Shown piece by piece: positions 30,660-47,784 of a stretch of 64,000 nt of DNA (position 1 is its first letter; every line of letters begins with the position of its first letter). Below the pieces are notes generated by a model. That model was given only the letters and a program-made list of their open reading frames with translations, was not told the DNA's origin and ran no database searches. The position numbers and the translations under genes were made by a program. The stretch is taken from NCBI GenBank assembly GCA_035466435.1, contig DATIUW010000103.1, positions 11,594 through 75,593 of the forward strand, read 5' to 3'. This stretch comes from Polyangiales bacterium. Its GTDB lineage: Bacteria; Myxococcota_A; Polyangia; Polyangiales; Houyiibacteriaceae.

Positions 30660-31778
30660 CTACCGTGGGCCGCCGAGCCAGCCCCGGCGTCGAAAGTAGT
30701 AAACCAGGCCGCCTCCAACGACGGCCATGAGGGCGAGCACGATCGGATAGCCGAAGGCCCAACCGAGCTCGGGCATGTTGTACGGCGACGCGTCCGGGTC
30801 GAAGTTCATTCCGTAGACGCCCGCGATGAAGCTCAGAGGCATGAAGACCGCGGCAAAGACGGTGAGCACCTTCATCACTTCGTTCAAGCGCTGGCTCGCC
30901 AGGCTGAGGTGTATGGAAACCAGCGCTGAGACCGTCTCGTTGTAGCTCTCCGTCACTTCGTTGAGCTGTACGATGTGGTCCTGACAATCTCGAAGGTAGA
31001 TTTTGGTGTCATCGGAAACCAACGGGCCTGCGATAGACGCCATCGCGGCGACCGCATCACGAGCCGGGTTCAGGTTGCGGCGCAAATGATTGAGATCGCC
31101 GCGAAGATCCAGCAAGCGCTGTACCACGGACGAATCGGATCTCGATAGAATCGCTCGCTCCATCTCGTCGATTCGATCGCCCATCGAATCCGCCAACGGC
31201 AGGTACTGGTCGATGGCGGAGTCGAGAAGCGCATAGGCGAGATAGTCCGCCCTTCCGTTGCGCACTCGGCCTTGCTTGCGGCGGATGCGCTCCCGCACCG
31301 CGTCGAAGCAATCCCCCTCTTCTTCTTGGAAAGTGAGGACGAAATCTCGACCGAGGAACACGCTGACCTGCTCGAACGTCGTAGCGCCGTCGTGCAAGTG
31401 CGGGATTCGAACGACGATGAATAGCGTGTCCCCGTATATCTCGGACTTCGGACGCTGGCGCTGATGAAGGACATCCTCGACCGCGAGCGCGTGGAGATTG
31501 AAGGCCGTGACGATGTGCGCCAGCGCTTCGGCGCTGCCGAGTCCGACCACGTCCAGCCAAAGAACTCGGCCGACTTCGGGGTGGAGCTTGTTCTTGGGGA
31601 TGGCCTTTTCGAAACGCTCTTCGATGAAGCTCTCGGCATCGTAGACCATTCTACGAACGACCGTGGGCGCGGCTTCTGGATGAGCTTCCAGGACGCCTGG
31701 CGGAGACCCAACCCGGTAGCGATTTCCGAGATCCAGGTAGTGCCGGGAGCGGCGGTTCTTGCGGCGAGCTTTCTTCAT
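30660..31778 (-). CDS. corA: CorA-family Mg2+/Co2+ channel
   Basis: YGMNF motif in the loop between two C-terminal TM helices. Overall length is typical. Confidence 0.9.
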   Translation of the reverse strand: MKKARRKNRRSRHYLDLGNRYRVGSPPGVLEAHPEAAPTVVRRMVYDAESFIEERFEKAIPKNKLHPEVGRVLWLDVVGLGSAEALAHIVTAFNLHALAVEDVLHQRQRPKSEIYGDTLFIVVRIPHLHDGATTFEQVSVFLGRDFVLTFQEEEGDCFDAVRERIRRKQGRVRNGRADYLAYALLDSAIDQYLPLADSMGDRIDEMERAILSRSDSSVVQRLLDLRGDLNHLRRNLNPARDAVAAMASIAGPLVSDDTKIYLRDCQDHIVQLNEVTESYNETVSALVSIHLSLASQRLNEVMKVLTVFAAVFMPLSFIAGVYGMNFDPDASPYNMPELGWAFGYPIVLALMAVVGGGLVYYFRRRGWLGGPR

Positions 31779-31853: not shown

Positions 31854-32849
31854 TTAGCCGGTGGAAGCCGCAATGTGTGCGATGGCATCGCCGCGGTGCA
31901 CGAGCGCCGAAGTCGCGTGCCCGATGACGATGCCCGGGCTGTTTGCTCGGACCAGGGTGCGATCTCGCCCCAGGGCGTCGAATATTACTGCGACACTTTC
32001 TCCTTCTGCCACGGCCGTGCCCAGGCTCACCATCATTTCGCAAAACCCGGTGCGGCGTGCGCGGACCCAGGAACTAGCGCGGTAGACGTGTGGTGGCTGT
32101 TCGGGGGACTCCACGCCGTAGTCGATCATGCCAAGTGCCTTCATGACGCGAAGCACGCCGCCCACTCCGAGCGCGATGGCGTGTGCGTCGAATCGGTTCG
32201 CTTCGCCAGCCTCGTAAACGAGGATAATCTTTCCTCTTTCCGTCGCTGCCGCACGCAAGGAACCATCGCGCAGACGCGAGTGCAATAGCACCGGCGCGCC
32301 GAACTCACTTGCAAGACGAAGGGTGTTCGGCTCAGTCAAGTCGCAACGCACCTGTGGTAAGTTGACGCGCCCATCCGAGCCGGTGTGTACGTCGAGGCCA
32401 ACGTCGGCGCGCGCCACCACTTCTTTCATGAACAGATGCGCCAACTGCGAGGCAGTGGAGCCGCGTTTGGAGCCGGGAAAGCTTCGATTGAGATCGCGCC
32501 GATCGGGCAGGTACCGCGACTCCTGGATCAACCCGAAGACGTTGATCACCGGCACTGCCAGGACCGTGCCGCAGAGATCGTTGGGATCGATGCGATCCAG
32601 GACCCGGCGGATGATCGGTATGCCCATCAGCTCGTCCCCATGAATGGCTCCGCTGACCCAGATCACGGGACCGTCTTTTCGGCCGTGCAAAACCCCGACC
32701 GGAAGTGAAAGCCACATGCCGGTGGGCAAACGCGCCACTTGGAGCTCGATCTGGGTCAGCTTGCCGGGCAGGGCTGCGACGCCGTCGATCTCGAAAGGGG
32801 CGCGTGGCTCACCCTTCGATCCGGTCCTTGGTCTTTCCTGGCTTCGCAT
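31854..32849 (-). CDS. Succinylglutamate desuccinylase/aspartoacylase-family (M14-like) deacylase
   Basis: [10 protein letters not shown] zinc-site block, DLNRSFPG and [14 protein letters not shown]. Overlaps the rimK 3' end by 41 nt. Confidence 0.8.
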
Positions 32850-33711
32850 GCTTCTCCAAGTATTCGATGATCGCTCCGGCCACGTCTTTGCCGCTGGTGG
32901 TCTCGATTCCCTCGAGCCCGGGCGAAGAATTCACCTCCATGACGACCGGTCCGTGATTGGAGCGCAGCATGTCGACGCCGGCGACACGGAGACCGAGCTT
33001 CTTCGCGGAACGCACTGCGGTGCTGCGCTCTTCGGGCGTGAGTCTCACCCGGGTCGCCTTGCCTCCGCGATGGAGGTTCGACCGAAACTCTCCGCGCGGC
33101 CCCTGCCGCATCATCGAGGCCACGACTTTGTCACCGATGACGAAGGCACGAATGTCTGCACCTCCGGCTTCCTTGATGAACTCTTGGACCAAAATGTTGG
33201 CATCGAGTTGGCTGAAGGCCGCCATGACGGATTCCGCCGCCTTGTCGGTTTCCGTGAGCACCACGCCAATGCCTTGTGTTCCTTCGAGAAGCTTGATGAT
33301 CAGCGGGGCACCACCGACCAGCTTGATCAAGCCCTGAATGTCCTTCGTGGAACGGGCGAATCCGGTCACCGGCAAGCCAATGCCCTCCCGCGCCAACAAT
33401 TGGAGCGCACGCAACTTGTCGCGAGCCCGAGAAATAGCTTGGGAGGTGTTCAGCGGGTACGTGCCCATCATCTCGAACTGTCGCACGACCGCAGTTCCGT
33501 AGAACGTATGGGACGCGCCAATACGCGGAATGACCGCGTCGAACTGCAGGGCGGTTCCCGCCAAGAGCACCTGAGGACGATGCGAAGTGATGTTCATGTA
33601 GCACCGCGTGAAGTCGACGACCCGCACCGTGTGACCTCGCTCCGCGGCGGCTTCTTTCAGTCTCTTGGTCGAGTAGAGCCTCGCATTCCTGGAAAGGATT
33701 CCGATCTTCAT
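32809..33711 (-). CDS. rimK: RimK-type ATP-grasp alpha-L-glutamate ligase
   Basis: [18 protein letters not shown]...[12 protein letters not shown]...[13 protein letters not shown]...[10 protein letters not shown]...[25 protein letters not shown] is close to canonical RimK. Confidence 0.9.
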
Positions 33712-34160
33712 GCCTCGTGCCTCTTCCTGCGCTTGGGAACCAGCCCACGACACAAGTATGAGCGCCCCGGCTCCACCACGAATCGCCCGCGAATGGCCTC
33801 GCGCCCGAGCAGCATTCTGAATCCCATTGCATCACGCGTAGTTAGGGTCAGATCGATCGGCCATCGCTCGGCTCCGAGCGCGAGGGACGTTCGAATGATC
33901 GGCCGGTACTCCCGGTGCCCGCTCGAGCTCTTCACGTGACGATGCTCGTGGAGCTCTGCCACACAGTGGATCGTCGTCTTCGTCTCTCGTTGCACCGGGT
34001 GAACGACGAAACGGACGTAGTCACGCGAGCCTCTCGAGAATACTTCGATGTCGTACGCATGAAGCGACGAGCTACGAGCGCCCGTGTCGACCTTCGCTTT
34101 GATCCGTGAGATGTCGAGGTCGGGCAACGCCACCCACTCACGCCAGCCGATGACCTTCAT
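33708..34160 (-). CDS. Retropepsin-like protease annotated as 'ATP-dependent zinc protease' (RimB-like, DUF785)
   Basis: [12 protein letters not shown]...[16 protein letters not shown] is the aspartyl D-T-G block. ATGA overlap with the rimK start. Confidence 0.75.
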
Positions 34161-34234
34161 GTCGCTCACGCCCACGAGCGTTGCCCTCGAAATTGCGAAA
34201 GTCAACGCGCTCTTTCAGTGTACCCTGTCGAGCC

Positions 34235-35674
34235 ATGTCGCTCCGGGACTATCTGACGCCACTCGATTTGTCTGCGATGTTCGGGCAGCTCGCTGGGTTG
34301 GTCCGAATGATGGGGGGGCTCTTGCTGGCGCCCGCTGCAGTCGGGTGGCTGAGTGGCGAATTTGTGATCGCCGGACTGCTTTCTGCGGTCAGCTTGCTCG
34401 GCTTGGGTCTCGGGCATTGGGGCCGCCGCTTGCTCTCGAGGGAGCTGGCTGCCCGCGAAGCCTTCTTGGTGACCGCACTCGCGTACCCGATCTTCTCGAT
34501 CGCCGGCGCAGTGGCCTTTCTTCCCGTCGCCCCTTTCATCGATGGTTTCTTCGAGAGCATGTCGGGTTTCACGACCACGGGACTCAGCGTCGTGCCGCTG
34601 GAAGACATGCCGCGAACGCTTCGCTTTTTTCGGTCGTACATGCAGTGGATTGGGGGCGCAGGCATCGTGATCTTGACGGTGGCGCTTCTCAACGCCACCC
34701 AGCCCGCAGGGTTCCGCTTTCGTCTCTACGGCTCCGGCTCGGAAGACGAGCGCATCGCAGGCGGCGTCCGCTCGACTGCTCGCGATCTGCTGAAGATCTA
34801 CGCGGTGCTGACCGGAGCCGTATGTTTGGCGCTCGTCGTGGTGGGAATGCCGATGGAAGACGCGGTGCTGCACGGGTTGGCCACGGTCTCCACCGGGGGC
34901 TTTTCGCCTCACGCCACCAGTATCGGCCACTACGTGAACGAGCCGCTGGTGCTCATCATCACCATGGTGGGCATGCTTCTCGGCGCCACGAGCTTCGCCA
35001 TTTACCAGCGTATCGCGCGACGCAACAAGAATCAGAACGACGAAACCGGGCGAGATCCCCAAGGCTTCGCCCTGGTGACCATCGTCTTGACAGGGGCGCT
35101 GCTGCTCTTCGTCTTGGAGGGAGAAGCTTGGCATGCCGTCTTCGATACCGTGACTTCCATCACCACGACCGGATTCTCGCTCGATGATCCGGCTGGATGG
35201 TCGCCTACGAGGAAGTTCTTCACGACCCTTTGGATGATCATCGGCGGCTCGACCGGCTCGACCGCGGGCGGCTTGAAGCTCATGCGATTTCTCGTGCTCC
35301 TCACCCTCGTGAGGTGGACCGTTCACAGACTGATGGTGCCAGCGGAAGCGAGGATCGCGCTCAAGTACGCAGGCGTGCCGATCGAGGCCGAGTCTCTGCG
35401 TCACTTGCTCGGTTTCATCGTGGCTTATCTCGCGTTGCTTCTCGCAGGTAGCGCCGCACTGGTCTTTGCCGGGTTCGATCCTGGCGATGCATTGTTCGAG
35501 AGCGCATCGGCCGTCGGAACGGTGGGGCTCTCGTGCGGCATCACGAACGCGACGCTACCTTCTTGGCTCAAGCTCGTGTTGAGCTTCCAGATGTGGGCTG
35601 GGCGACTCGAGGTCATCCCCGTGCTAGTGGTGTTCTATCCAGCAACCTGGAAGCTACGCAGGAGGTCGCGATGA
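34235..35674 (+). CDS. trkH: TrkH-family K+ uptake permease
   Basis: Multi-TM protein with repeated pore-loop blocks SGFTTTGLS, STGGFSP, TTTGFSL and SAVGTVGLS. Confidence 0.9.
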   Translation: MSLRDYLTPLDLSAMFGQLAGLVRMMGGLLLAPAAVGWLSGEFVIAGLLSAVSLLGLGLGHWGRRLLSRELAAREAFLVTALAYPIFSIAGAVAFLPVAPFIDGFFESMSGFTTTGLSVVPLEDMPRTLRFFRSYMQWIGGAGIVILTVALLNATQPAGFRFRLYGSGSEDERIAGGVRSTARDLLKIYAVLTGAVCLALVVVGMPMEDAVLHGLATVSTGGFSPHATSIGHYVNEPLVLIITMVGMLLGATSFAIYQRIARRNKNQNDETGRDPQGFALVTIVLTGALLLFVLEGEAWHAVFDTVTSITTTGFSLDDPAGWSPTRKFFTTLWMIIGGSTGSTAGGLKLMRFLVLLTLVRWTVHRLMVPAEARIALKYAGVPIEAESLRHLLGFIVAYLALLLAGSAALVFAGFDPGDALFESASAVGTVGLSCGITNATLPSWLKLVLSFQMWAGRLEVIPVLVVFYPATWKLRRRSR

Positions 35675-36324
35675 GGGTGATCATCGTGGGCATCGGCAGT
35701 ATTGGTTACGAGCTTACGAGAGACTTGACGCGCGGTGGCTCACACCAAGTCGTGCTGATCGACAACGATCCGGAGCGTTGCGAGGATCTGAGCGAGCAAT
35801 TCGATGCCTTCGTTCTCGAGGGTGACGGTACGAATCCCGAGTTGCTACAAAAAGCGCTCGTCGAAGAAGCGGACGCGCTGATTGCCAGCACGAGCTCGGA
35901 TGCGCTCAACACGGTCATCGCCATGCTTGCGAAACGATTCGACGTGCCGACTGTCATGGTCAAGCTCAAGGATCTCGGCCTGCGCGCCGCCTGCAAAGAG
36001 ATCGGCGTCGCACGGATCGTCACGCCCAGCATCTCGGCCGCGGCAGAAATGCTGGCGGCCTTGCACGGATTTGGCAGGCCCGACCTGTCCCTCGTGACCC
36101 GAGGAGGCCTGCGATTCGAGGAGCTCGAAGTGCAAGGAATCGATCCGACTTCGATACGTGAGCTGAACGTTCCGGACGGGGCCTTGATTCTCACGGTGGT
36201 TCGGGGTGAAGAAGTGCTGCTCGCGCGCGGCAGCACCCGCGTCCAGCAAGGCGACCTGTTGTTGCTGCTCGTCGAAAACGAACACGTGCTCGAACAGGTG
36301 CAGAGCCTGGTCGCTTCGAGCTAG
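35671..36324 (+). CDS. trkA: TrkA-type RCK (NAD-binding) regulatory subunit
   Basis: MRVIIVGIGSIGYEL Rossmann motif plus a C-terminal TrkA_C-like domain. ATGA overlap with trkH, with a GGAGG RBS. Confidence 0.85.
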   Translation: MRVIIVGIGSIGYELTRDLTRGGSHQVVLIDNDPERCEDLSEQFDAFVLEGDGTNPELLQKALVEEADALIASTSSDALNTVIAMLAKRFDVPTVMVKLKDLGLRAACKEIGVARIVTPSISAAAEMLAALHGFGRPDLSLVTRGGLRFEELEVQGIDPTSIRELNVPDGALILTVVRGEEVLLARGSTRVQQGDLLLLLVENEHVLEQVQSLVASS

Positions 36325-37148: not shown

Positions 37149-38543
37149 TCACTTCTCGCCCGGCCATGCGCTTCGTTTGGTCACCCCCCATTCCTGAAGT
37201 CGGTACTGGATGGTCCGTTTGCTGATGCCGAGAATCGCGGCTGCCTTCGTCGGCGAACCCCCCACCGCTTCCAGGGTTCTGAGGATCGTATACCGTTCGA
37301 CCTCGGCCAAGGTCACGCCCGGCACGAGCAAGCTCAACGGCTCGACCTCCGGATCAGCCGCCCGGATTGGCAGGTCTTCCGCGCCGATGAGGTCTTGTTC
37401 ACAGAGGACCACCGCTTGCTCGATGGCATGTTGGAGCTCGCGGACGTTTCCCGGCCAAGGATAGCCGAGAAGCGCCTCGCGAGCGCGCGGCGTGAAGCCA
37501 CGCACCTGCTTGCCGTTCTCTTCCGAATAAAACCGAAGAAAATAATCGGCGAGAAGGGGAATGTCACTCGGGCGCGCGCGAAGCGGGGGTACGTCGAGCA
37601 CGACGACCTTGAGCCGGAAGTACAGATCCTCGCGAAACCTCCCGTCGTCGACCAGCGCCCTCAAGTCTCGGTTCGTGGCGGCGACGACTCGTACGTTGAC
37701 CTTGACGGTCTCGTTGCCGCCCACCCGCTCGAACTCCCGCTCCTGGAGAAAGCGAAGCAGCTTGACCTGCACCGAAAGCGGCATTTCGCTGAGCTCGTCG
37801 AGGAAGAGCGTGCCGCGGTCGGCCTGCTCGAACCGGCCGCTGCGTCGCGTCACGGCTCCCGTGAAGGCTCCCTTCTCGTGCCCGAAGAGCTCGGATTCGA
37901 GGACGCTTTCCGACAGCGCTGCGCAATTCAGCCGAATGAGAGGCCCCTCGCTCCGCAGCGAGTGCTCGTGCACGGCCTTGGCAATCAGCTCTTTGCCGGT
38001 CCCGGTCTCTCCCTGGATCAGCACCGTCGACCTGCTCTTGGCAGCCTGAAGCATTCGCTTGAAGAGCCGCTGCATCGAGGGATGCGCCCCGACGATGTGA
38101 TCGAGTCGCGTCGTCGGAAAGGACGCGGCAGCCTCGGCTCGCGCATTGATCGCGTCTCTCGCATGGATGGGCTTGTCGAGTGACCGCTCGACTACGAGGG
38201 CGAGCGCATCGGGTCGTATCGGCCTGGTGAGGCAGCGATCGGCGCCACTGGTCAAGGCTTTGACCGCCGTGTCAGTCGAGCCGGAGCTCGCGATCGCGAT
38301 GAATGAGGCCGAAGGCAGAAGCGCCCGAGCCTGCCGAAGGAACTCGAATCCGTCCATCCCGTCGAGATCGAGCTCGACGAGCACCACGTCGGGCATCGAC
38401 CGTTCCACGAGCTCGAGTGCCTCGGCGCCGTCGGGCGCCGTATCCACCGTGTGCCCGATCGCCGTGAGCTGAGCCTCCAGCTCGGATTGGACCTTCGCAT
38501 CGCCTTCGACGACCAGGACCCGGCCGGTCTGCTGCGGCATCAT
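37149..38543 (-). CDS. Sigma-54-dependent response regulator (NtrC-class bEBP)
   Basis: Receiver domain (VLVVEGD...[15 protein letters not shown]). AAA+ domain with [14 protein letters not shown] (GAFTGA loop) and ATNRDL. C-terminal Fis-type [23 protein letters not shown]. Confidence 0.9.
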
Positions 38544-38600
38544 GGCGCAAGGATGGCTCGCGCCGTCGGGGCCGTCCATAGTCGGTCGGCCACAAAGGTC

Positions 38601-38635
38601 GTGCGCGAAATCCGAGCAGGTGTCAGATTTGCGCA
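38601..38635. promoter_or_regulatory. Imperfect inverted repeat between the bEBP and kinase genes
   Basis: GTGCGCGAAATC (38601-38612) pairs with GATTTGCGCAC (38625-38635), giving 11-bp arms with one bulged G. Confidence 0.3.
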
Positions 38636-38643
38636 CGATCATC

Positions 38644-39504
38644 ATGCGCTGGGACGTGCTTCGAAACACCGGGAGCAAATCCGCCTCTCCGGCCCTCAAG
38701 GCGCGGCAGATGCTGGGCAAGTACCGCATCCGCCGTCGAATTGGCGCCGGGGCGTTTGCCACCGTCTACGAGGCCTACGACACGATCGAGGGCGCCCCGG
38801 TCGCCCTCAAGATTCCCCACCTCGACCAGCTCGACCAAGAGTCGCTGAATCTCATTCGCCGCGAGGTTCGGCTGACCGCGCGCCTGGAGCACGAGAACAT
38901 TCTTCCACTGCGCAACGCGATGATGATCGACGGACACTTCGTCATCGCGACGCCCCTCGGACAGCAGACGCTTGCCGACCGGTTGCACAGACGCCTCGGG
39001 CCCAAAACGGCGTTGTCGTACACGGAGCAGTTGCTTTCTGCCCTGGCGTACGCGCACGAAGAGCGGATCATTCACTGTGACATCAAGCCGGACAACGTGA
39101 TCCTCTTTCCCGGCGGGGTCGTCCGGCTCGCCGATTTCGGAATCGCGAAGGTCGCACTCAGAACGCGAACCATCATGGGGTCGGGGCAGGGAACCGTCGG
39201 CTACATGGCGCCGGAGCAGGCGATGGGGAAGCCGTCGTTTCGGTCCGATGTCTTCTCGATGGGGCTGTTGATCTACCGAATGTTCGCGGGGGAGCTCCCG
39301 GAGTGGCCGTTCGACTGGCCGCTACCGGGGGCGGAACGTCTCCGCCGAACGGTCAGCCGGGACTTCATCAGCTTCATCCGTCGCGCCATGGAGATTCGCG
39401 AACGCAAGCGGTATCGTGATGGGGTGCAGATGGAGCGGGCCTTCCAAGCCGTCCAGCCGCGAGCCCTTCGAAGCTCGACGCGTGGCGGGAGGTCGGCGCG
39501 GTGA
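38644..39504 (+). CDS. Ser/Thr protein kinase, catalytic domain only
   Basis: GAGAFATVY...ALK, HCDIKPDNV, DFGIAK and GTVGYMAPEQ. Start is 38644 or 38710. Confidence 0.85.
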   Translation: MRWDVLRNTGSKSASPALKARQMLGKYRIRRRIGAGAFATVYEAYDTIEGAPVALKIPHLDQLDQESLNLIRREVRLTARLEHENILPLRNAMMIDGHFVIATPLGQQTLADRLHRRLGPKTALSYTEQLLSALAYAHEERIIHCDIKPDNVILFPGGVVRLADFGIAKVALRTRTIMGSGQGTVGYMAPEQAMGKPSFRSDVFSMGLLIYRMFAGELPEWPFDWPLPGAERLRRTVSRDFISFIRRAMEIRERKRYRDGVQMERAFQAVQPRALRSSTRGGRSAR

Positions 39505-40328
39505 GCGAGACCCACATCTTCACGGATGTGGACACGACGCGAGGCGAGCGGTTCGAGCTCGGGGCTGGGGAAGCCGTCGTGCTCAGCATTCCAAAACCCG
39601 GACGCGACGGGCCGAACGAGGATGCCGCCGCGCTGATATCCCTCGCTGAGAATGCTGCCGTCGCCGTGGTCTCCGATGGGGCAGGCGGCCACCCTGGAGG
39701 CGCGGAGGCGGCATCGCTGGCCGTTCGGGCGGTCTGCGACTCAGTCGAGGAGCTCGGAGACGATCTCCACAACCTGAGGGATGCGATCATCAACGGCTTC
39801 GAATCGGCGGATCGAGCGATCTCGGCACTCGGCACGGGCGCGGCGGCCACCCTCGCGGTGGTCGAAATTCAGGGCAATCACATGCGGGCCTATCACGCGG
39901 GCGACTCCATGGTGCTCGTCACCGGTCAGCGCGGGCGGATCAAGTGGCTCACGATTCCGCACTCGCCCGTGGGCTATGCGGTCGAGGCCGGCCTGCTGGA
40001 TCGGGGCGATGCGCTGCACCACGAGGATCTTCACCTCGTATCCAACCTGCTCGGGGGTCAGGGAATGCGGATCGAGCTTGGTGCCGCTTTGGAGCTCTCG
40101 CCTCGCGACACGGTCGTTCTGGCGAGCGATGGGCTGAGTGACAATCTCCATCTCGACGAGATCGTCGAGCGTGTCCGAAAGGGACCGCTTCCCCGTGCCG
40201 TGGCCGAGCTGGCCGCATTGGGCCGCGAGAGAATGGCTGCGTCTTCCGACGGCGCGCCCTCGAAGCCAGACGACCTCACGTTCATTGCGATAAGGCGGCG
40301 CCGTTCGTCTGGCCGCAAGCGCCGTTGA
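39501..40328 (+). CDS. PP2C-family Ser/Thr phosphatase
   Basis: GTG start in a GTGA overlap with the kinase stop. NEDAAA, VSDGAGGHPGG and LASDGLSD blocks. Confidence 0.8.
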   Translation: MSETHIFTDVDTTRGERFELGAGEAVVLSIPKPGRDGPNEDAAALISLAENAAVAVVSDGAGGHPGGAEAASLAVRAVCDSVEELGDDLHNLRDAIINGFESADRAISALGTGAAATLAVVEIQGNHMRAYHAGDSMVLVTGQRGRIKWLTIPHSPVGYAVEAGLLDRGDALHHEDLHLVSNLLGGQGMRIELGAALELSPRDTVVLASDGLSDNLHLDEIVERVRKGPLPRAVAELAALGRERMAASSDGAPSKPDDLTFIAIRRRRSSGRKRR

Positions 40329-40938
40329 ACGCTTCCAGCTCGCGGACCGAGCGATAGCCTTTGCCCCAGCGAGCGAAGTGCTGGACGGCCGTCGCCGTCA
40401 CCGCGTCGACCAGGTGCCACAGAGGTTGCTCCACCTGCTCGACGAGCTTGAGGGCCGATTTGATCTGTGCGTCCCATCGCTCCGAGTAGCGATCGAGGTC
40501 GCCGGCCTCGACCCTCTTGCGACAGGGCCCGGTCGAGCACCGAAGCTCCATGCCTTCTGGAAGATTGAACATTCCGTACTCGTCGGTGATCTGTTCTCCC
40601 GCCTCGATGTCCCGTATCGCAATCTCGAAGCCATACGCCGTGCTCATGGTGTTGGCCTGGCAGCAGTGATTGACGAACTTGGCGTGGTCCCAGCTCACGA
40701 TGCGGACGCCATTCGGGTCGATGTAGGAATAGCGTTCGATGATCGGCGCAAGCGTGGGATCTTGGAGCCTCGGGTCCTCGGGCAGGATCTCGATCTCGAG
40801 CGGGTCCCAGACATAGGTGATGGTTCCCTTGGTGAGCCTGGCCTTGGCGAAGACTCCCAAACCGACGACGTCATCGATGTATCGCACTTCTGTGGATGGA
40901 TGAATCACGGTGCGGCCCGCGTGCAGGATCAGTGCCAA
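40282..40938 (-). CDS. SET-domain protein (putative lysine methyltransferase)
   Basis: GLGVFAKARLTKG..., FVNHCCQANT (NHxCxPN motif) and GEQITDEYG. Its 3' end overlaps the PP2C gene by 47 nt. Confidence 0.75.
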   Translation of the reverse strand: MALILHAGRTVIHPSTEVRYIDDVVGLGVFAKARLTKGTITYVWDPLEIEILPEDPRLQDPTLAPIIERYSYIDPNGVRIVSWDHAKFVNHCCQANTMSTAYGFEIAIRDIEAGEQITDEYGMFNLPEGMELRCSTGPCRKRVEAGDLDRYSERWDAQIKSALKLVEQVEQPLWHLVDAVTATAVQHFARWGKGYRSVRELEAFNGACGQTNGAALSQ

Positions 40939-41100
40939 GTGGGGCGGAAGTCAAGAGCCTCAGAACGCGGGAGGCGAGCGGCTCCTCGGTGCAAAACTTG
41001 CCCTCACGGGATGCGCAAGCCTTGCACTGGTGCCATTTCGGCCCCGTGGAGTAGGGCACGTGCGCGGGCCGCGGGGCGATGTCAGAGTTGCCCGCACCAG

Positions 41101-42147
41101 ATGAAAGGCGACCTTCGCAACGGCGCGACAAGTCCGGTCTTCCGCAATCGCGAGCTCGTCATCGAGGACTTTCCGCGGGGGGAGGTTTCACGCCTCTACG
41201 TCGATCTCGTCGCGAATGGCCTGGCCCAAGACATCCTACTTCCGGTCTTGGTGGCGCGGGGCAAGCGCGATGGTCCGGTTTTCGGGCTGACCGCTGCCGT
41301 TCACGGCAACGAGCTGAACGGCATCCGCGTGATTCACGACCTCATGCATCATATCGACCCGCGGCAGCTCCAGGGCGCGCTGGTAGCCGTGGTCGTCGTC
41401 AACGTCCCAGGTCTGCATCGGCATCAACGGGAGTTCGTCGATGGTGGCGACCTCAATCACATCTTCCCAGGTCGTGAGGATGGGAACGTCGCCGAGGTCT
41501 ACGCTCACCGAATCCTGGATCGAATCGTCAAACGCTTCGACTATTTGGTAGACTTGCACACGGCGAGCTTCGGCAGGGTCAACTCGCTCTACGTGCGCGC
41601 CGACATGACACAGCTCTCGACAGCGACCATGGCGTACCTGCAGCGGCCGCAGATCATCGTCCACAATCCACCCTCGGACTACACCCTACGGGGCGCAGCG
41701 ATGGATCTCGGGATTCCTTCCATCACCTTGGAGGTAGGCGACCCCCAGCGCTTTCAGCCGGGCTTCGTGAAATCGTCGCGCATTGGTCTTCGAACCGTGC
41801 TGGCCGCCGCGGGCATGCTCCCGAGGCGTCCCGTCGCCGAAGGCCACGAGCCTGTCCTGTGCGAGCGTTCCTTTTGGATGTACGCCGATCGCGGCGGGCT
41901 TTTGGAGGTGCTTCCGCGTCCCACCGAGCTGGTGAGTCGCGGTGAGCGCGTCGCCGTGCTTCGGAATGCCTTCGGAGACGTGATCCGCGAATACCACGCG
42001 CCGCAGGACGGCATCGTCATAGGCAAGAGCGCCAACCCGGTGGGCCAAACCGGCGCTCGGATCTTGCACTTGGGCGTCATCGCGTCGGCGGAGCACGGCT
42101 TTCAACGGCGGCCGGCGAGCCCTGCGGTTCTGCAAGGGAGCCATTGA
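41101..42147 (+). CDS. Succinylglutamate desuccinylase/aspartoacylase-family (M14-like) deacylase, second copy
   Basis: Start reset to MKGDLRNG at 41101. AAVHGNELNG, DLNHIFPG and VDLHTASFGRVNSLYVR parallel the copy at 31854-32849. Confidence 0.8.
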   Translation: MKGDLRNGATSPVFRNRELVIEDFPRGEVSRLYVDLVANGLAQDILLPVLVARGKRDGPVFGLTAAVHGNELNGIRVIHDLMHHIDPRQLQGALVAVVVVNVPGLHRHQREFVDGGDLNHIFPGREDGNVAEVYAHRILDRIVKRFDYLVDLHTASFGRVNSLYVRADMTQLSTATMAYLQRPQIIVHNPPSDYTLRGAAMDLGIPSITLEVGDPQRFQPGFVKSSRIGLRTVLAAAGMLPRRPVAEGHEPVLCERSFWMYADRGGLLEVLPRPTELVSRGERVAVLRNAFGDVIREYHAPQDGIVIGKSANPVGQTGARILHLGVIASAEHGFQRRPASPAVLQGSH

Positions 42148-43124
42148 TGCGGGTGTGCTTCGTCGTGAACGATCGGCGGGAGCCTTCCGCCGAGCAGACC
42201 ACCACGCTCTTGATTGCCGCCGCTGCGCGAAGAGGGCACGAGGTTCTGGTCTGCGGTGTTTGCGATTTCACCGTGACCGACGACGGCACGCTCCATGTCC
42301 TCGGTCGTCGCGTGGAAGCAACGGAGCCGTCAGCCGTCGTCGAGGAGCTCCTCGGAGGCCAAGCGCACAGTCAGGCGCTCGGCGAGCAGGACTTGTGCGT
42401 CATCCGGACGAACCCGGGTCGGGACGAGGCGCGCCGCGCCGAGCACGTGGCGGCGCTTCGTCTCCTCGAGCAACTCGATGAGCAGGGTGTTCGCGTCCTC
42501 AACCACCCACGGGGCCTCTCGCGGGCGCTCACCAAGCTCTCTCTTCTGGAGGTCCCGCCTTCCTCGAGGCCGCGTACCCTGATCACGCGGGACGTTGCGA
42601 CGATCGAACGATTTCTCCACGACGCACCGGACCGGATCGTCATCAAGCCCCTCGATGGAACCCGAGGTCGCGATGTCTTCGTCCTCGATCCGGCAGGCTC
42701 GCGGGCCAACGTGAAGCAGATCATCGAGGTCGTGCTCCGGCGCGGCTATGCGATGGTGCAGGAATTCGTACCCGGGGCCGACCGTGGGGACGTTCGGGTG
42801 ACCGTCGTGAACGGCCGGGTCCTCGAAGTCGATGGCCAGCCGGCTGCCATTGCGAGAGTACCGAGGGGCGGAGATTTTCGAAGCAACCTTCACGCTGGCG
42901 GGGCTGCCGAGCCGTCCGACGTCACCGACGCCATGCGAGACGCGATTGCAGAGCTTGCCCCTCACCTACGACGGGAAGGACTCTTTCACGTGGGCGTGGA
43001 TTTCGTGGGCGGCCGCATACTAGAGCTGAACGTGTTCAGCCCAGGTGGGCTCCATCCGAGCGAGCGTCTCTATGGGCAGGATTTCAGCGGCGCGGTCGTC
43101 GAGGCGTTCGAGCAACGAGCTTGA
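42144..43124 (+). CDS. ATP-grasp ligase, glutathione-synthetase/RimK-like
   Basis: ATGA overlap with the upstream deacylase. GshB-like N-domain (RVCFVVNDRREPSAEQTTTLLIAAAARRGHEV). IVIKPLDGTRGRDV, DFRSNLHAGG and VGGRILELNVFSPGG. Confidence 0.8.
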   Translation: MMRVCFVVNDRREPSAEQTTTLLIAAAARRGHEVLVCGVCDFTVTDDGTLHVLGRRVEATEPSAVVEELLGGQAHSQALGEQDLCVIRTNPGRDEARRAEHVAALRLLEQLDEQGVRVLNHPRGLSRALTKLSLLEVPPSSRPRTLITRDVATIERFLHDAPDRIVIKPLDGTRGRDVFVLDPAGSRANVKQIIEVVLRRGYAMVQEFVPGADRGDVRVTVVNGRVLEVDGQPAAIARVPRGGDFRSNLHAGGAAEPSDVTDAMRDAIAELAPHLRREGLFHVGVDFVGGRILELNVFSPGGLHPSERLYGQDFSGAVVEAFEQRA

Positions 43125-43137
43125 TCGCCACGAGCGT

Positions 43138-44691
43138 TCAGTCTCTTGGAGGGTCCGGCACGACGGCCTTTGCGCCCTTGGCACCCGCACGGATCTCCTC
43201 GAACAGCGCATCATCGTCATCGAGAGACCGGAACAGCCCGCGGCGAAGACCCCCTTTTCGCGTGAGCAGCATCGCGGTCATCTTGTCGATGGCGATCGCT
43301 GCCAGCACCGACTGAATGTAGGCCTCGATGAGATCGTCGGTGCCGATCCCGATGGTGTTGAAATCACGCCGGTCCATCAAGAGCAGGCGGTCGGTCGACG
43401 CAGTCCAGCTACCATCGGGCTGTCGCTCAGAAAGATTGGTTCCGAGCACTTCCCATGATGATTCGCCTTCCTCGAGGACGGCTGGGAGAGGTCTTCTCGA
43501 GCGTCGCGCGTACACCGCGAGAGGGCGAAAGCCCGTTGCGCCGCCGCACACCATCACCCTGAGGTCGGCGACGTAAATGTGGCCGTGCCGATCGGGAATG
43601 GTGCCGACGTGATAGAAACGCCCGGCACGCTCCACCGAGCTCCATACGTAGTTCCCGATCAGGCTTTGCACGACGAAGCGATCGTACGGATGATCCATAT
43701 CCATGAACCGCCCCAGCTCGCCCTCGTTGACGATCGTGTACACGCCCTGACCTGCATTGCTGTAAGGGACTTTCACGACGGCGTGACCGCCGAAGCGGCG
43801 CACCCAAAGCGGCACCTCTTCCTTGGCCACGTCTCCGATCGTCTGCGGAGTTCGGATCTGTAAGCCGGAGGCTTCGAGCTCGGCGTTGTAGAGCTCGTAC
43901 GCCTTCATCGCGACTAGCTTGTTGCGCCCCCCCGAAAGGCAGGTCACGACCGGGTTCAAGATGCGGGTGCGCGTTCGAACTGGAATTCGATTCCAGGGCT
44001 TCTGGGTTACGTAGCGAAACGCCGCGCGGATCGGTCTCCACCGTCCCTGTGCATCTCTGATTTCCAGTAAGCCGTCGGTGAACCTCGCTGGAGGATCGTC
44101 GATCGCGTCCGGAAACGGCGTGAGAAAGACGTCTTCTCCGGTGAGGTCGGCAATTACCGCGGCGTATCCGGAGGCTTCCATGTGGTTCTTGTCGAACAAA
44201 ACTGCCAGGTCGCCGGAGGTCGCTTTTCGTTTTGAAATCAAGGGGAGAAACGCAGTTTCGATCAGCTTGCGATAGCCGGCCTGCTCGTCGTCGTCTGATG
44301 GGATGGGCATCGACTTGTTGCCCGAGGGACAAGAGTTGGTTTCGACTACGACCAACCTTCGATTTCCCGCGGCCGTGGTGGTGCAGAAAAGGTCGGCGCC
44401 GGCCCACTGGAAATGCTTGGGTGAGTAGCTCAGGACCTCTTCCAGCGCCTGCGGATCGACTCGGGGATTCAAATGACAGTATCGGTTGACGATACGGCGG
44501 TTGGACATCCGCAGAAAGAAGGACACCAAGGGGTGGATCTGAGCGTTCAGCACCCGAGCGTAGAAGTGGTTGCGAGGCTCGAATGAGCCCGGTGGGACCA
44601 AGGTCGCGTGCTGGCGATGCAACGCTGCCCGGGAGGCGGTGACATCCATGGGTCTCGAGCCGATGCTGCGCCGCGAATGCAACGCTGGCAA
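43138..44691 (-). CDS. Large uncharacterised protein with ATP-grasp-like motifs
   Basis: HAVVKVPYSNAGQGVYTI (K-P..G.G-type phosphate loop), FVVQSLIGNY, YVADLRVMV and LVVVETNSCPSG. The motif order is unusual and I recognise no named family. Start ambiguous between 44691 and 44649. Confidence 0.45.
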   Translation of the reverse strand: MPALHSRRSIGSRPMDVTASRAALHRQHATLVPPGSFEPRNHFYARVLNAQIHPLVSFFLRMSNRRIVNRYCHLNPRVDPQALEEVLSYSPKHFQWAGADLFCTTTAAGNRRLVVVETNSCPSGNKSMPIPSDDDEQAGYRKLIETAFLPLISKRKATSGDLAVLFDKNHMEASGYAAVIADLTGEDVFLTPFPDAIDDPPARFTDGLLEIRDAQGRWRPIRAAFRYVTQKPWNRIPVRTRTRILNPVVTCLSGGRNKLVAMKAYELYNAELEASGLQIRTPQTIGDVAKEEVPLWVRRFGGHAVVKVPYSNAGQGVYTIVNEGELGRFMDMDHPYDRFVVQSLIGNYVWSSVERAGRFYHVGTIPDRHGHIYVADLRVMVCGGATGFRPLAVYARRSRRPLPAVLEEGESSWEVLGTNLSERQPDGSWTASTDRLLLMDRRDFNTIGIGTDDLIEAYIQSVLAAIAIDKMTAMLLTRKGGLRRGLFRSLDDDDALFEEIRAGAKGAKAVVPDPPRD

Positions 44692-44754
44692 GTCAAAGGA
44701 AAGCCCGAGCGCGCTATGGTGCCAAAGCGTTACAATCGTATACTCCTCACAGCC

Positions 44755-45069
44755 ATGACTGAGGAAACAGAGGAAATCGAGCTACACGTCGAGGTCGAAG
44801 AGGGCGAGCCGCCGAAAGGCCGTCTAGTTTTGCTAGATGAATCGAATCGCGAGCTCGGCGAGATGCTCTTTCGCCGGGAGGGCGAGAGCATCGTGGTCAT
44901 CGAGCATACCGAGGTGGACTCTTCGCTCCGAGGCAAGAACGGCGGGCGACGGTTCTTCGAGGGGATGGTCGGATGGGCCCGCGAGACCGGCACCCAAATC
45001 CGGTCGGAGTGCCCATTCACCACTAAAATGTTCGAACGAGAGCCATCGAGCCGCGACGTTCTGGCGTGA
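44755..45069 (+). CDS. Small GNAT-like acetyltransferase (YjdJ / Acetyltransf_CG type)
   Basis: Start reset to MTEETEE. IEHTEVDSSLRGKNGGRRFFEGMVGWARETGTQIRSECPF matches the single-domain GNAT_CG pattern. Confidence 0.6.
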   Translation: MTEETEEIELHVEVEEGEPPKGRLVLLDESNRELGEMLFRREGESIVVIEHTEVDSSLRGKNGGRRFFEGMVGWARETGTQIRSECPFTTKMFEREPSSRDVLA

Positions 45070-45117: not shown

Positions 45118-46425
45118 ATGGTCCGCGCCATGTTGGCTCGGCTTGGAGAGGTGTTCAGCCGTTGGGCTGATCGATGGGTGCCTGATCCCTTCGTCCTTGC
45201 GCTCGCACTGACTCTGATCACGTTGTTCGGGGGCTTTGCGCTCACCGGATCCGCGAGCGCCGTATTTCGAGGTTGGTATGGCGGCTTTTCGAGCACGCCC
45301 CTGCTCGCGTTCGCACTGCAGATGTGCCTGATTCTAGTGACCGGACAGGCGTTGGCGGCGAGCCCGCCGATCCAGAGAGTAGTTCGCGCAGTGGCACGAT
45401 TACCCAAGCGCACTTCGTCGGCTGCCGGCATGGTGGCTGTGATCGCCTGCCTCACCGGGTTGATTCAGTGGGGGCTCGGCGCGGTGGTGGCCGCTTTCGT
45501 CGTGCGCGAGATCGCCCACGGTGCCGCAGAAGAAGGCCGACCGATGGACATTCCCGTGTTGGGGGCCGCAGCATACACGGGACTTGCCGTTTGGCACGGA
45601 GGGCTGAGCGGCTCAGCGCCCCTCAAGGCTGCCGAGTCGGTTCGTTTCACGCAGGGTGGGGCTGATGCGATCCCCGTCAGCGAAACGCTGTTTTCGCCTC
45701 TCAATTTGGTCGTCAGTGGAGGCCTCCTCGTGTTGCTTCCCTTGTTGTGCGTTGCGCTCGCACCGAAGGAGTCGAGCGTTCCAGAACCGCTACCGAGCAA
45801 GAACGAGCCGGCGGGGCCTCAGAAGCGGTCCCTTTTTGGTCTCTTGGTCGGCGGGGCGGCCGGAGTGCTGGTCGTCGTGAGCTGGGTGGGTGGTGATCTG
45901 TCTTTCGATCTCAACTCCGTGAACCTCTTCTTTTTGACGTTGGCGCTTGCTGCACACGGGTCGATTCGCAGTTTTCTCGATTCCGCATCCGAAGGCGCTC
46001 GCGGCGCCGGCTCGATCATCGTGCAGTTCCCGCTTTACTTCGGCATCCTCGGCGTGATGCAGGCGAGCGGTATGATCGAGGGCCTTTCCTCGCTGATGTC
46101 GACGATTGCGTCTACTACGACGTTCCCCGTGCTGACCTTTCTCAGCGCCGGCGCCGTGAACTTCTTCGTTCCGTCTGGCGGCGGCCAATGGGCTTTGCAG
46201 AGCGACATACTCTTGACGACTGCCAGCGTCCTCGAGCTTCCGCCGGCAAATACCATCATGGCGTTCGCCTATGGCGACCAGTGGACCAATCTGTTGCAGC
46301 CGTTCTGGGCGCTGCCTCTTCTTGCGATTACCGGCTTGAAGGCGCGTCAAATCGCTGGCTACACGGCGATCTTGGCGATCGGCATGGGTCTCTACGTCGG
46401 GGCCGTGTTGCTGGTGGTGGGTTAG
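45118..46425 (+). CDS. atoE: Short-chain fatty acid transporter (AtoE family)
   Basis: [23 protein letters not shown] at the N-terminus and a multi-TM body. [12 protein letters not shown] block. Confidence 0.85.
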
Positions 46426-47069
46426 AGGGCTTCGGAGACCTGGTAGGTCGCTTCGGTATTGTCAGCGACTTCGTCGAGCGTCACCCCTTCGGCCAGCTCG
46501 ATCAGCGTCATACCCCCATCGCCCCTCTTGTCGATCTCGAAGACCCCGAGGTCGGTGATGACCAAGTCGACGACCTTCGTCCCGGTCAGCGGTAGCGTGC
46601 ACTCCTCGAGAAGCTTCGGCTTGCCCTTCGCCGTGTGCTCCATGACGACTACGACTCTCTTCACGCCGGCTACGAGATCCATGGCGCCACCCATGCCCTT
46701 GACCATCTTGCCCGGAATCATCCAGTTGGCGAGGTCGCCATTCCCCGCGACCTGCATCGCCCCGAGAATCGACAAATCGATGTGTCCGCCACGAATCATC
46801 GCAAATGACTCCGCGCTCGAGAAGAAGCTCGTCGACGGCAGCTCCGTGACCGTCTGCTTTCCTGCGTTTATCAGGTCGGCGTCTTCCTCGCCTTCGTAAG
46901 GGAAGGGCCCCATGCCCAGCATTCCGTTCTCACTCTGCAGCTGCACCCTGATTCCCTCGGGAATGTAGTTGGAAACGAGGGTTGGAATGCCGATGCCGAG
47001 ATTCACGTAGAAGCCATCTCGAAGCTCTTGCGCGGCACGGGTTGCCATCTGTTCGCGGGTCCAGGCCAT
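46422..47069 (-). CDS. scoB: 3-oxoacid CoA-transferase subunit B
   Basis: [27 protein letters not shown] and GGAMDLV blocks. Confidence 0.9.
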
Positions 47070-47079
47070 CGTCTCCTCC

Positions 47080-47784
47080 TCAGGGGCGCGGACGCGTGGT
47101 CCGCTTCTCGATGTGCTTCGAGGGGTTCGGGTAGTGAATGATCCGGTCCACGTAGATTCCCGGAGTCATGACGTGATCCGGCTCGAGCTCGCCAGGATCG
47201 ACCAAGTGCTCCACCTCCGCGACGGTTACTCTTGCGGCCGTGGCCATCATGGGATTGAAGTTTCGGGCGGTCTTGCGATAGACGAGATTGCCCTCCGTAT
47301 CGCCTTTCCATGCATGGACGATTGCAACGTCGGCGAAGAGCGCGCGCTCCATCACGTATTGCTCGCCGTCGAACTCACGAACCTCTTTCCCTTCCGCGAC
47401 CACGGTTCCGACGCCCGTCTTCGTGTAGAACGCAGGGATTCCCGCACCACCCGCACGAATGCGTTCGGCGAGCGTGCCTTGGGGATTGAACTCCACGGTC
47501 AAATCGCCGTCGAGAAACTGCTTTGCGAACAGCTTGTTCTCTCCGACGTAGGATGAAACCATCTTGCTGATTTGACGTGTTTCGAGCATCACGCCGAGAC
47601 CAATTCCATCGACGCCTGCGTTGTTCGAGATCACGGTCAAATCCTTCACGCCAGATTTCGCGACAGCCTCGATCAGGGCCTCGGGGATTCCACACAACCC
47701 GAACCCTCCCGACATCAGCGTCATGCCATCGCGCAAGAGCCCATCGAGCGCTGCCGAGGCATCTGGATACAACTTGTTGACCAT
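47080..47784 (-). CDS. scoA: 3-oxoacid CoA-transferase subunit A
   Basis: [23 protein letters not shown] and [24 protein letters not shown]. Confidence 0.9.

Follow-up and report, generated by a model that had tools for sequence, protein, structure and literature searches.

What kind of protein is the 517-residue orphan encoded in a five-gene cluster at positions 40282-45069 of a 64,000-nucleotide stretch of Polyangiales bacterium DNA, and do the five genes belong together? The whole stretch (contig DATIUW010000103.1, positions 11,594 to 75,593) is called the window here, and coordinates refer to it unless a locus number (L) is given. The orphan, for which the working name CPAG is used, lies among genes for a SET-domain protein, an AstE/AspA-like zinc hydrolase, a GshB-type ATP-grasp ligase and a small GNAT acetyltransferase (mini-GNAT). 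An earlier note on this DNA had seen ATP-grasp-like blocks in the orphan and, in the cluster, a system for modifying peptide or protein tails or for making a small amide-linked metabolite. Based on structure prediction and a survey of gene neighbourhoods, CPAG is predicted to be a circularly permuted ATP-grasp amide ligase of a family of its own, and its most constant partner was found to be the AstE-like hydrolase.

Predicted fold of CPAG

CPAG gave no match to Pfam models (even at E=10), to NCBIfam models (E≤0.01) or to PDB sequences (E≤10), either as a single sequence or as a profile, in line with the earlier note, which could not place it in a named family. All four blocks quoted for it as ATP-grasp-like, including FVVQSLI, ADLRVMV and VVVETNSCPSG, were found in the 517-residue translation, with the VVVETNSCPSG block first. 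Their order had been judged unlike the standard fold layout, and HMM (hidden Markov model) searches and structure prediction had been proposed to look for a circularly permuted ATP-grasp; the HMM searches were matchless, the predicted fold was of that permuted kind, and the unusual block order has thus been borne out.

The AlphaFold2 model, based on a 55-sequence alignment, had a pLDDT of 93.7 and a pTM of 0.93 and replaced an earlier model made from 22 close homologues (pLDDT 74.7). When it was compared with the PDB by Foldseek, the best match was yeast glutathione synthetase (1m0w, E 1.8e-9), and the enzymes of potato and human and the GSS-like effectors of nematodes were also at the top. 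The bacterial protein 3n6x was the top or third match (E 1.8e-8, or 1.2e-7 with the earlier model). The best and longest matches, with 415-467 aligned columns, were permuted ATP-grasps; Ddl, RimK, synapsin, LysX and PurK ranked lower, as weaker and often shorter matches. The same ranking pattern was obtained with the earlier, poorer model, and every match with E≤1e-3 was an ATP-grasp enzyme, without exception. Human glutathione synthetase (hGS) is reportedly a circularly permuted ATP-grasp, a finding said to be that of Polekhina and co-workers in 1999, and the 3n6x family is presumably permuted too, from the Pfam description of CP_ATPgrasp.

The order of the motifs points the same way. In an hhalign comparison the profile of the GshB-type partners was collinear with CPAG residues 88-485 (94.6%, E 6.7e-8), pairing CPAG K244, K293, Q328, D362-x-R364 and N405 with their GshB counterparts. 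GshB ends in a hairpin (GVDFV…ILELNVFSPGG); at that place the C-terminus of CPAG has only helices, without the D…ExN hairpin. A corresponding hairpin, W-A-G-A-D86-L-F…V-V-E103-T-N105-S-C-P-S-G, was located at residues 82-105, ahead of the N-domain, so that the Mg-ligand hairpin (D86…E103-x-N105) is N-terminal to the ATP-binding lysines K244 and K293. This position argues that the guess of a permutation was right. In the best local alignment to hGS, which is non-significant (E 0.24-0.54), CPAG D86, E103 and N105 fall on hGS D127, E144 and N146; the GSS sequence used is identical to that of 2hgs. Glu144 of human GSS is a residue of the Mg/ATP site (PMC10106969). Moving the N-terminal hairpin to the C-terminus of the CPAG profile left the hhalign score unchanged. 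That sequence similarity between CPAG and hGS is not significant counts against the assignment, and the proposed permutation rests on the fold search together with the motif order.

From the model, CPAG is predicted to have an ATP-grasp fold that is circularly permuted like that of eukaryotic glutathione synthetase, the last beta-hairpin with the Mg ligands (D86, E103-x-N105) being shifted in front of the N-domain, and to be an active ATP-dependent carboxylate–amine ligase with intact catalytic residues. Among the marks of an ATP-grasp protein it has the fold, the lysines and the acidic and Asn Mg ligands, and lacks a match to a curated model.

Eukaryotic glutathione synthetases (2hgs, 1m0w, 5oes) share with CPAG the permutation (Foldseek E 1.8e-9 to 1e-6, 420-467 columns), in that the D…E-x-N hairpin comes ahead of the N-domain, of the lysines and of the Gly-rich loop (K293-PYSNAGQG in CPAG, K364-PQREGGGN in GSS). 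However, identity is 10-14%, the TM-score is ~0.40, the Pfam GSS model is unmatched, and neither significant similarity (hhalign E as given above) nor the substrate-site residues of GSS were found; CPAG also differs in being partnered by an AstE-like hydrolase and a bacterial-type GshB-like ligase. The low TM-score and identity argue that CPAG is a family of its own, distinct from glutathione synthetase. The CP_ATPgrasp proteins (3n6x, Mfla_0391, 'putative glutathionylspermidine synthase') are, like CPAG, bacterial permuted ATP-grasps. Their usual partners are transglutaminase and alpha-E genes, whereas neither was seen in the CPAG neighbourhoods examined, and with no Pfam model matched at E up to 10, CPAG shows neither the HMM match nor the partners of the CP_ATPgrasp_1/2 systems.

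CPAG as a sequence family and its distribution

A word-indexed search returned more than 3649 homologues of CPAG, the family comprises 905 representatives at 50% identity, and a scan of one genome per GTDB species gave at least 554 confirmed matching stretches. In the 55-sequence alignment, which extends down to 27% identity, D86, E103, P115, A149, G240, K244, P268, K293, G300, Q328, D362, R364 and R382 are invariant, and N105 and many further positions are at least 90% conserved. Identity is 57-65% between bacterial phyla and 42-57% between bacterial and eukaryotic copies. Among the long family members no informative domain fusions were found, these being eukaryotic gene models or mis-fusions. 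The most divergent member lies on a 1.7-kb contig that shows no gene context. Searches of PADLOC (defence systems), Rfam and phage genomes were negative. Annotation of CPAG was absent from Pfam, NCBIfam, the source names of the listed homologues and the one RefSeq record examined, and no description of the family or the cassette was found in the literature searched, which left out Iyer et al. 2009 (Mol Biosyst).

Among the Myxococcota, CPAG was identified in Polyangia, Nannocystaceae (including Enhygromyxa salina) and Kofleriaceae, and it also occurs in Bradymonadia. It was found in Bacteroidota (many Saprospiraceae and Lewinellaceae), Rhodothermales, Bdellovibrionales, Bacteriovoracaceae, a Leptolyngbyaceae cyanobacterium, Burkholderiales, Gammaproteobacteria and Planctomycetes. 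The window is closest to "Myxococcales bacterium SG8_38", with 95% protein identity. In the cultured Bacteroidota species Chondrinema litorale, a GNAT–AstE-like–CPAG arrangement is located on a 152-kb plasmid, where CPAG has the RefSeq name "hypothetical protein"; an acetoacetate-CoA ligase and an L-2-hydroxyglutarate oxidase are encoded nearby.

Strong eukaryotic matches were obtained in Podila verticillata, Rhizoclosmatium globosum, Fonticula alba and Naegleria fowleri, and further ones in Reticulomyxa filosa, Cyanidium caldarium, Trichinella pseudospiralis and Trichuris suis. Their names are of the kind "hypothetical" or "uncharacterized"; only the Trichinella gene model differs, taking its name from a CTF18-like protein fused to it. 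The genomic surroundings were examined for five copies, in Naegleria, Podila, Fonticula, Rhizoclosmatium and Cyanidium; all five are nuclear genes, some with introns, and their neighbours are ordinary eukaryotic genes, e.g. cyclin, RB and cullin. Because the eukaryotic copies are about as similar to bacterial ones (43-57%) as to one another, ancient inheritance and repeated horizontal transfer would look the same here. Naegleria fowleri has two CPAG genes with 97% identity (L090 7440-10586; L091 7873-11001), and downstream of each, on the same strand, is the gene for a RimK-type ATP-grasp with 37-42% identity to the RimK of the window, a bacterial-style gene pair within a eukaryotic genome. 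Two acidic ribosomal stalk genes (Ribosomal_60s) lie beside CPAG in Podila verticillata (L092 13399-17290), and a DDAH gene (L093 3186-5706) lies 4 kb upstream of it in Fonticula alba; either observation may be of significance or not.

Organization of the locus

The five genes of the cluster and their domains were confirmed at the positions claimed for them by a six-frame ORF (open reading frame) list and Pfam/NCBIfam scans. The features are as follows.

40282-40938, minus strand: SET-domain methyltransferase (PF00856, E 1.2e-8), likely start GTG 40908
40922-40937, minus strand: TGGCAC-N5-CTGCA, candidate promoter of the sigma-54 type, a short way 5' of the likely SET start
41101-42147, plus strand: Zn amidohydrolase of the AstE/AspA family (AstE_AspA_cat, PF24827, E 6.5e-33)
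42144/42147-43124, plus strand: GshB-type ATP-grasp ligase of standard order (GSH-S_ATP 9e-42, GSH-S_N 7e-12, RimK 8e-16)
43138-44649, minus strand: CPAG, predicted circularly permuted ATP-grasp amide ligase, 503 aa; the ORF reaches TTG 44691 (517 aa)
44755-45069, plus strand: GNAT_CG acetyltransferase of 104 aa (PF14542, E 2.2e-15), divergent from CPAG; cassette membership doubtful
31854-34205, minus strand: paralogous module of RimB-like protease, RimK and AstE-like hydrolase, given as context outside the cassette

The ORF of 517 codons is present as described, but its length as a protein has to be revised. Nearly all CPAG homologues are ~485-508 aa long and begin at the residue that corresponds to M15 of the ORF product (MDVTASR...), so that the true start is probably ATG 44649, giving 503 rather than 517 residues. 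Likewise, the SET gene probably starts at GTG 40908, since its homologues begin with MIHP. The junction of the AstE-like and GshB-like genes reads ...CCATTGATGCGG, i.e. TTGATG, and the ATGA overlap proposed for it was not found; there is either a 1-nt TGA/ATG overlap (ATG 42147, the likelier start) or a TTGA overlap. With this TGATG/TTGA overlap the GshB-like gene is translationally coupled to the AstE-like gene. The GshB-like gene and CPAG are convergent, with 13 nt between their stops.

Conservation of the gene neighbourhood

The five window proteins were compared by tblastn with 80 species loci taken from the genome scan. Loci were kept if CPAG had 2.5 kb or more of flank on either side, which left 56, and a gene within 2.5 kb was counted as a partner. 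The following partners were detected, with identities to the window protein.

AstE-like: 41 of 56 loci, 30 on the same strand as CPAG, 41-95% identity
GshB-type: 24 of 56 loci, 15 on the same strand as CPAG, 25-87% identity
SET: 9 of 56 loci, 8 on the same strand as CPAG, 37-87% identity
GNAT_CG: 2 of 56 loci, 79-81% identity

Independent gene calls and precomputed Pfam hits agree with these counts, from which it follows that the core of the cassette is CPAG with the AstE-like hydrolase, its most constant partner, usually joined by a second ligase of standard order, that SET is a genuine, recurrent but optional fourth partner, and that the mini-GNAT is probably local. Conservation of the neighbourhood, which the earlier note had proposed to survey, holds for the hydrolase, the GshB-type ligase and, as a recurrent element, SET; for the five genes as a single co-conserved set it does not, on account of GNAT_CG.

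CPAG remains adjacent to the hydrolase and ligase genes in at least five or six bacterial phyla, and start and stop codons frequently overlap; this conservation supports a functional link between the three. CPAG–AstE–GshB runs of overlapping or abutting genes were found in Rhodothermales (L061), a cyanobacterium (L077) and Bradymonadia-like genomes (L007). In the last (L007 5718-7004) a PAD_porph gene, of the agmatine/peptidyl-arginine deiminase family, overlaps the CPAG start, which may be of significance or not. SET genes occur near CPAG in two phyla, as Myxococcota and Saprospiraceae. A Saprospiraceae locus (L030) has the order 2-oxoglutarate (2OG)-Fe(II) oxygenase–SET–CPAG–GshB-like–AstE-like on one strand with gaps of 20-40 nt, and a further same-strand operon (L082) reads MscS–SET–CPAG–GshB-like–AstE-like. 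MscS genes are near CPAG in 12 of 77 loci. In five Lewinellaceae (L064, L065, L067, L069, L085; ~6007-8350) AstE-like and GshB-like genes are absent within 6 kb of CPAG, and an MscS-type channel gene lies 4-40 nt 3' of it, the two forming a unit between pyrF and fhs (identified from the sequence by eye).

Hydrolase and second ligase

The AstE-like protein scored far below the cut-offs of the NCBIfam equivalogs DoeB (69 vs 403), AstE (20 vs 306) and ASPA (26 vs 180), and its best PDB sequence matches were 3cdx and DoeB 6twm. By sequence it is a member of the AstE/AspA Zn-deacylase family and not AstE, ASPA or DoeB proper. The Zn ligands H68, E71 and H153 and the catalytic E211 are kept in 48-49 of 49 CPAG-linked hydrolases, and the enzyme looks catalytically competent. 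After the D-L-N motif, at residue 120 (window 41458-41460), His is found in 29 of these 49 proteins and Arg in 14, and the RimK-linked paralogue of the window has DLNR. The Arg after DLN presumably corresponds to ASPA R71 and carboxypeptidase R145, which bind the terminal carboxylate of the substrate. From this His/Arg difference, the CPAG-linked and RimK-linked subfamilies may recognise different substrate ends.

The GshB-like protein is similar to E. coli GshB (1gsa, E 1.9e-32) and remained below three NCBIfam glutathione-synthetase cut-offs (NF009110 281/408, NF003573 194/272, TIGR01380 184/299). It scored 48 against a cut-off of 331 for the RimK equivalog and matched TIGR04187 weakly (1.2e-8). 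The partner in the Saprospiraceae is also of the GSH-S_ATP type. Because all three cut-offs were missed and the gene moves with the cassette, the possibility considered earlier, that it is a housekeeping glutathione synthetase, appears unlikely.

SET protein, promoter candidate and mini-GNAT

The SET protein retains N90-H91-x-C93 and the C-terminal Y121, as compared with 11 partners, and looks catalytically competent. A sigma-54-type element, TGGCAC-N5-CTGCA, with one mismatch to the consensus, lies 14-29 nt upstream of the likely SET start; six one-mismatch sites of this type are present in the window against 1.43 expected. A sequence TTGGCA(C/T)-N5-xTGCA was seen by eye upstream of SET in three other loci (L010, L012, L013), but a regular-expression search gave no match. 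A sigma-54 activator/response regulator is encoded at 37149-38762, and sigma-54 activators recur in 12 loci. From these sequences we infer only a candidate promoter of the SET gene at 40922-40937. When the sequence upstream of the AstE-like gene was read by eye, no sigma-54-like site was seen there.

A Ser/Thr kinase and a PP2C phosphatase flank the SET gene (38542-40328). PP2C homologues recur in 9 loci; in one (L035 7428-8684) the PP2C ORF overlaps the CPAG stop, and another is at L024 8457-9269. The GNAT_CG gene adjoins CPAG solely in the closest relatives (L011, L012) and is probably a local neighbour rather than part of the cassette. Other GNAT types recur, as a GNAT+CN_hydrolase fusion in 10-11 loci and as Acetyltransf_3 in Chondrinema.

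Upstream module and other neighbours

The RimK and deacylase pair described ~9 kb upstream as a mirror of the cassette pair was found as stated, together with a RimB-like protease. The genes of this module are:

33708-34205, minus strand: Zn_protease/RimB-like
32809-33753, minus strand: RimK
31854-32849, minus strand: AstE-like paralogue

The two AstE-like proteins of the window are 35% identical, and RimK and the GshB-like protein share 29% identity. The operon is followed by CorA (30660-31778, minus strand) and faces TrkH/TrkA K+ uptake genes (34181-36324, plus strand); the RimB-like gene of L006 likewise adjoins CorA. Given these adjacent genes, the paralogous module may be linked to cation or osmotic homeostasis. 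Downstream of the cassette (region to 48785) are a short-chain fatty acid transporter gene, SCFA_trans (45118-46425), and, at 46422-47784 on the minus strand, ORFs that resemble by eye the two subunits of a 3-oxoacid CoA-transferase.

Like the RimK/RimB system, the cassette combines an ATP-grasp ligase with a hydrolase that might undo its work. Unlike that system, it has no RimB-like protease (no PF05618 gene, which is present only in the upstream operon), its standard-order ligase is of the GshB type with a GSH-S_N domain and falls below the RimK cut-off, and there is an extra, permuted ligase; the equivalog score and the protease that mark a RimK–RimB system for modification of ribosomal protein S6 are both lacking. 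The mammalian enzymes of N-acetylaspartate (NAA) and N-acetylaspartylglutamate (NAAG) metabolism, namely NAT8L, RIMKLA/B and aspartoacylase, comprise the same classes, a GNAT, a RimK/GshB-type ligase and an AspA-family deacylase, and through them a small acidic N-acyl dipeptide is formed and degraded (PMC3872778). The likeness goes no further than analogy; the hydrolase falls short of the ASPA model, and CPAG has no counterpart there.

Proposed function and alternatives

Since CPAG travels with a second ligase and a zinc hydrolase, the cassette probably makes and breaks an amide-linked product. The earlier note had left two options side by side, modification of a protein tail and synthesis of a small metabolite; the balance has shifted toward the latter. 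We give about an even chance to a small acidic peptide-like or N-acyl-peptide metabolite that would be made in two steps and recycled by the hydrolase. Following the chemistry of these enzyme families, the two ligases would act in series through acyl-phosphate intermediates, attaching amino acids at the carboxylate of a small acceptor that is rich in such groups; the result would be an acidic di- or tripeptide resembling glutathione or NAAG, or else an N-acyl peptide. The AstE-like enzyme would then hydrolyse the terminal amide, freeing an amino-acid-like moiety and resetting the pool. Some lineages could process the product further by SET, 2OG oxygenase or GNAT enzymes, or release it through MscS. 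The leading guess is that it serves as a compatible solute or K+ counter-ion. The order of steps, the product and the physiological role proposed here are built on the fold of CPAG, the intact active sites of both ligases, the conserved catalytic residues and the linkage of the genes.

Several lines of evidence favour a small molecule. Both ligases have tripeptide synthetases as their nearest relatives, and for the hydrolase the top-scoring entries of PDB and NCBIfam are N-acyl-amino-acid deacylases, including DoeB. In the tightly packed operons no space was seen for a gene that could encode a precursor or substrate, the search covering ORFs of 70 aa or more. MscS is a repeated neighbour of CPAG, forming a two-gene unit with it in Lewinellaceae, and enzymes of small-molecule nitrogen metabolism are encoded nearby (PAD_porph, the GNAT+CN_hydrolase fusion and, in Fonticula, DDAH). 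The mammalian GNAT, RimK-type and aspartoacylase trio is a close analogue, in which RIMKLA/B ligate Glu to N-acetylaspartate or citrate (PMC3872778). Against this stand the SET proteins and P4H-type 2OG oxygenases, which are normally protein-directed, the AstE-like paralogue within an operon of RimK, the modifier of ribosomal protein S6, with RimB, and the RimK type of the CPAG neighbour in Naegleria. The unusual conservation of CPAG also fits a conserved macromolecular target, and the links with MscS and nitrogen enzymes are confined to few lineages and could be chance synteny.

A cycle of C-terminal tagging and untagging of a protein or peptide, like that of RimK/RimB on S6 or of TTL/TTLL and CCP on tubulin, has a fair probability, though a lower one than a metabolite. 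In such a cycle a conserved protein would receive an amino-acid tail that is begun by CPAG and lengthened by the GshB/RimK-type ligase; the AstE-like enzyme, with its carboxypeptidase fold, would trim it, and further modifications of this target would come from SET and the 2OG oxygenase. The occurrence of SET and a P4H-type 2OG-Fe(II) oxygenase within one Saprospiraceae operon, the AstE-like member of the RimB–RimK operon in the same window, the RimK-type partner in Naegleria and the very high conservation of both CPAG and the AstE-like protein agree with it, as do the recurring PP2C and Ser/Thr kinase neighbours (PP2C even overlapping the CPAG stop in L035) and the RimJ/RimL-type Acetyltransf_3 GNAT of Chondrinema. 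But no conserved candidate target gene lies in the cassette, SET is present in just 9 of 56 loci, the CPAG–MscS units of Lewinellaceae are hard to account for, and the closest folds of CPAG are tripeptide synthetases. The characterised enzymes of the AstE/AspA family act on small N-acyl amino acids, a habit that also speaks against a tagged protein.

Synthesis of glutathione or an analogue, with the GshB-like protein as an ordinary glutathione synthetase and CPAG as a non-homologous substitute for gamma-glutamylcysteine ligase, seems improbable. The best named matches of the 42147-43124 product are glutathione synthetases, and the fold of CPAG is nearest to the eukaryotic one; however, the GshB-like protein stays under every NCBIfam glutathione-synthetase cut-off and is a less constant partner than the hydrolase (24 vs 41 of 56 loci), and a hydrolase as core partner misfits a biosynthetic pair. 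In addition, the hGS segment NRSD stands opposite AGAD of CPAG (in the non-significant alignment), and the eukaryotes that have CPAG are expected to own the canonical glutathione pathway already. Least probable of all, and very much so, are a graspetide-like maturation cluster for a ribosomally synthesized and post-translationally modified peptide (RiPP) and a chance neighbourhood without shared function. Two ATP-grasps with a GNAT and a methyltransferase do resemble microviridin-type clusters, and the weak TIGR04187 match of the GshB-like protein fits them, but in the packed operons room for a precursor-peptide gene was not seen and a transporter was not found, and CPAG is nearly invariant across phyla and occurs in eukaryotes, unlike RiPP enzymes. 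Chance is excluded by the linkage in 41 of 56 loci across phyla.

Biological meaning

ATP-grasp amide ligases are already known as a kind of enzyme, and CPAG has its permutation in common with eukaryotic glutathione synthetase. Undescribed, according to the checks made, are the CPAG family, its spread over bacteria and eukaryotes and its fixed cassette with a hydrolase, a GshB-type ligase and often a SET protein. It is uncommon for a family so conserved (~60% between bacterial phyla) and so widespread to have neither a family model nor a name, and its constant association with a hydrolase and a second ligase leads to a biochemical hypothesis that can be tested directly. With so few genes the set could be reconstituted, and cultured hosts are available in Enhygromyxa salina, Chondrinema litorale and Naegleria. 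We hold it somewhat short of an even chance that CPAG, its GshB/RimK-type partner and the AstE-like hydrolase constitute an undescribed amide-bond pathway of many bacteria and scattered eukaryotes, the latter comprising Naegleria, early-diverging fungi, Fonticula, red algae, foraminifera and trichinellid nematodes; its output could be a small peptide metabolite not described before, or the three could form an ancient system that tags protein tails reversibly, with a methyltransferase and a hydroxylase of its own. Knowing the product could bring to light a novel osmolyte, peptide metabolite or reversible modification of proteins, and would annotate thousands of "hypothetical proteins", including those of the pathogens Naegleria fowleri, Trichinella and Trichuris.

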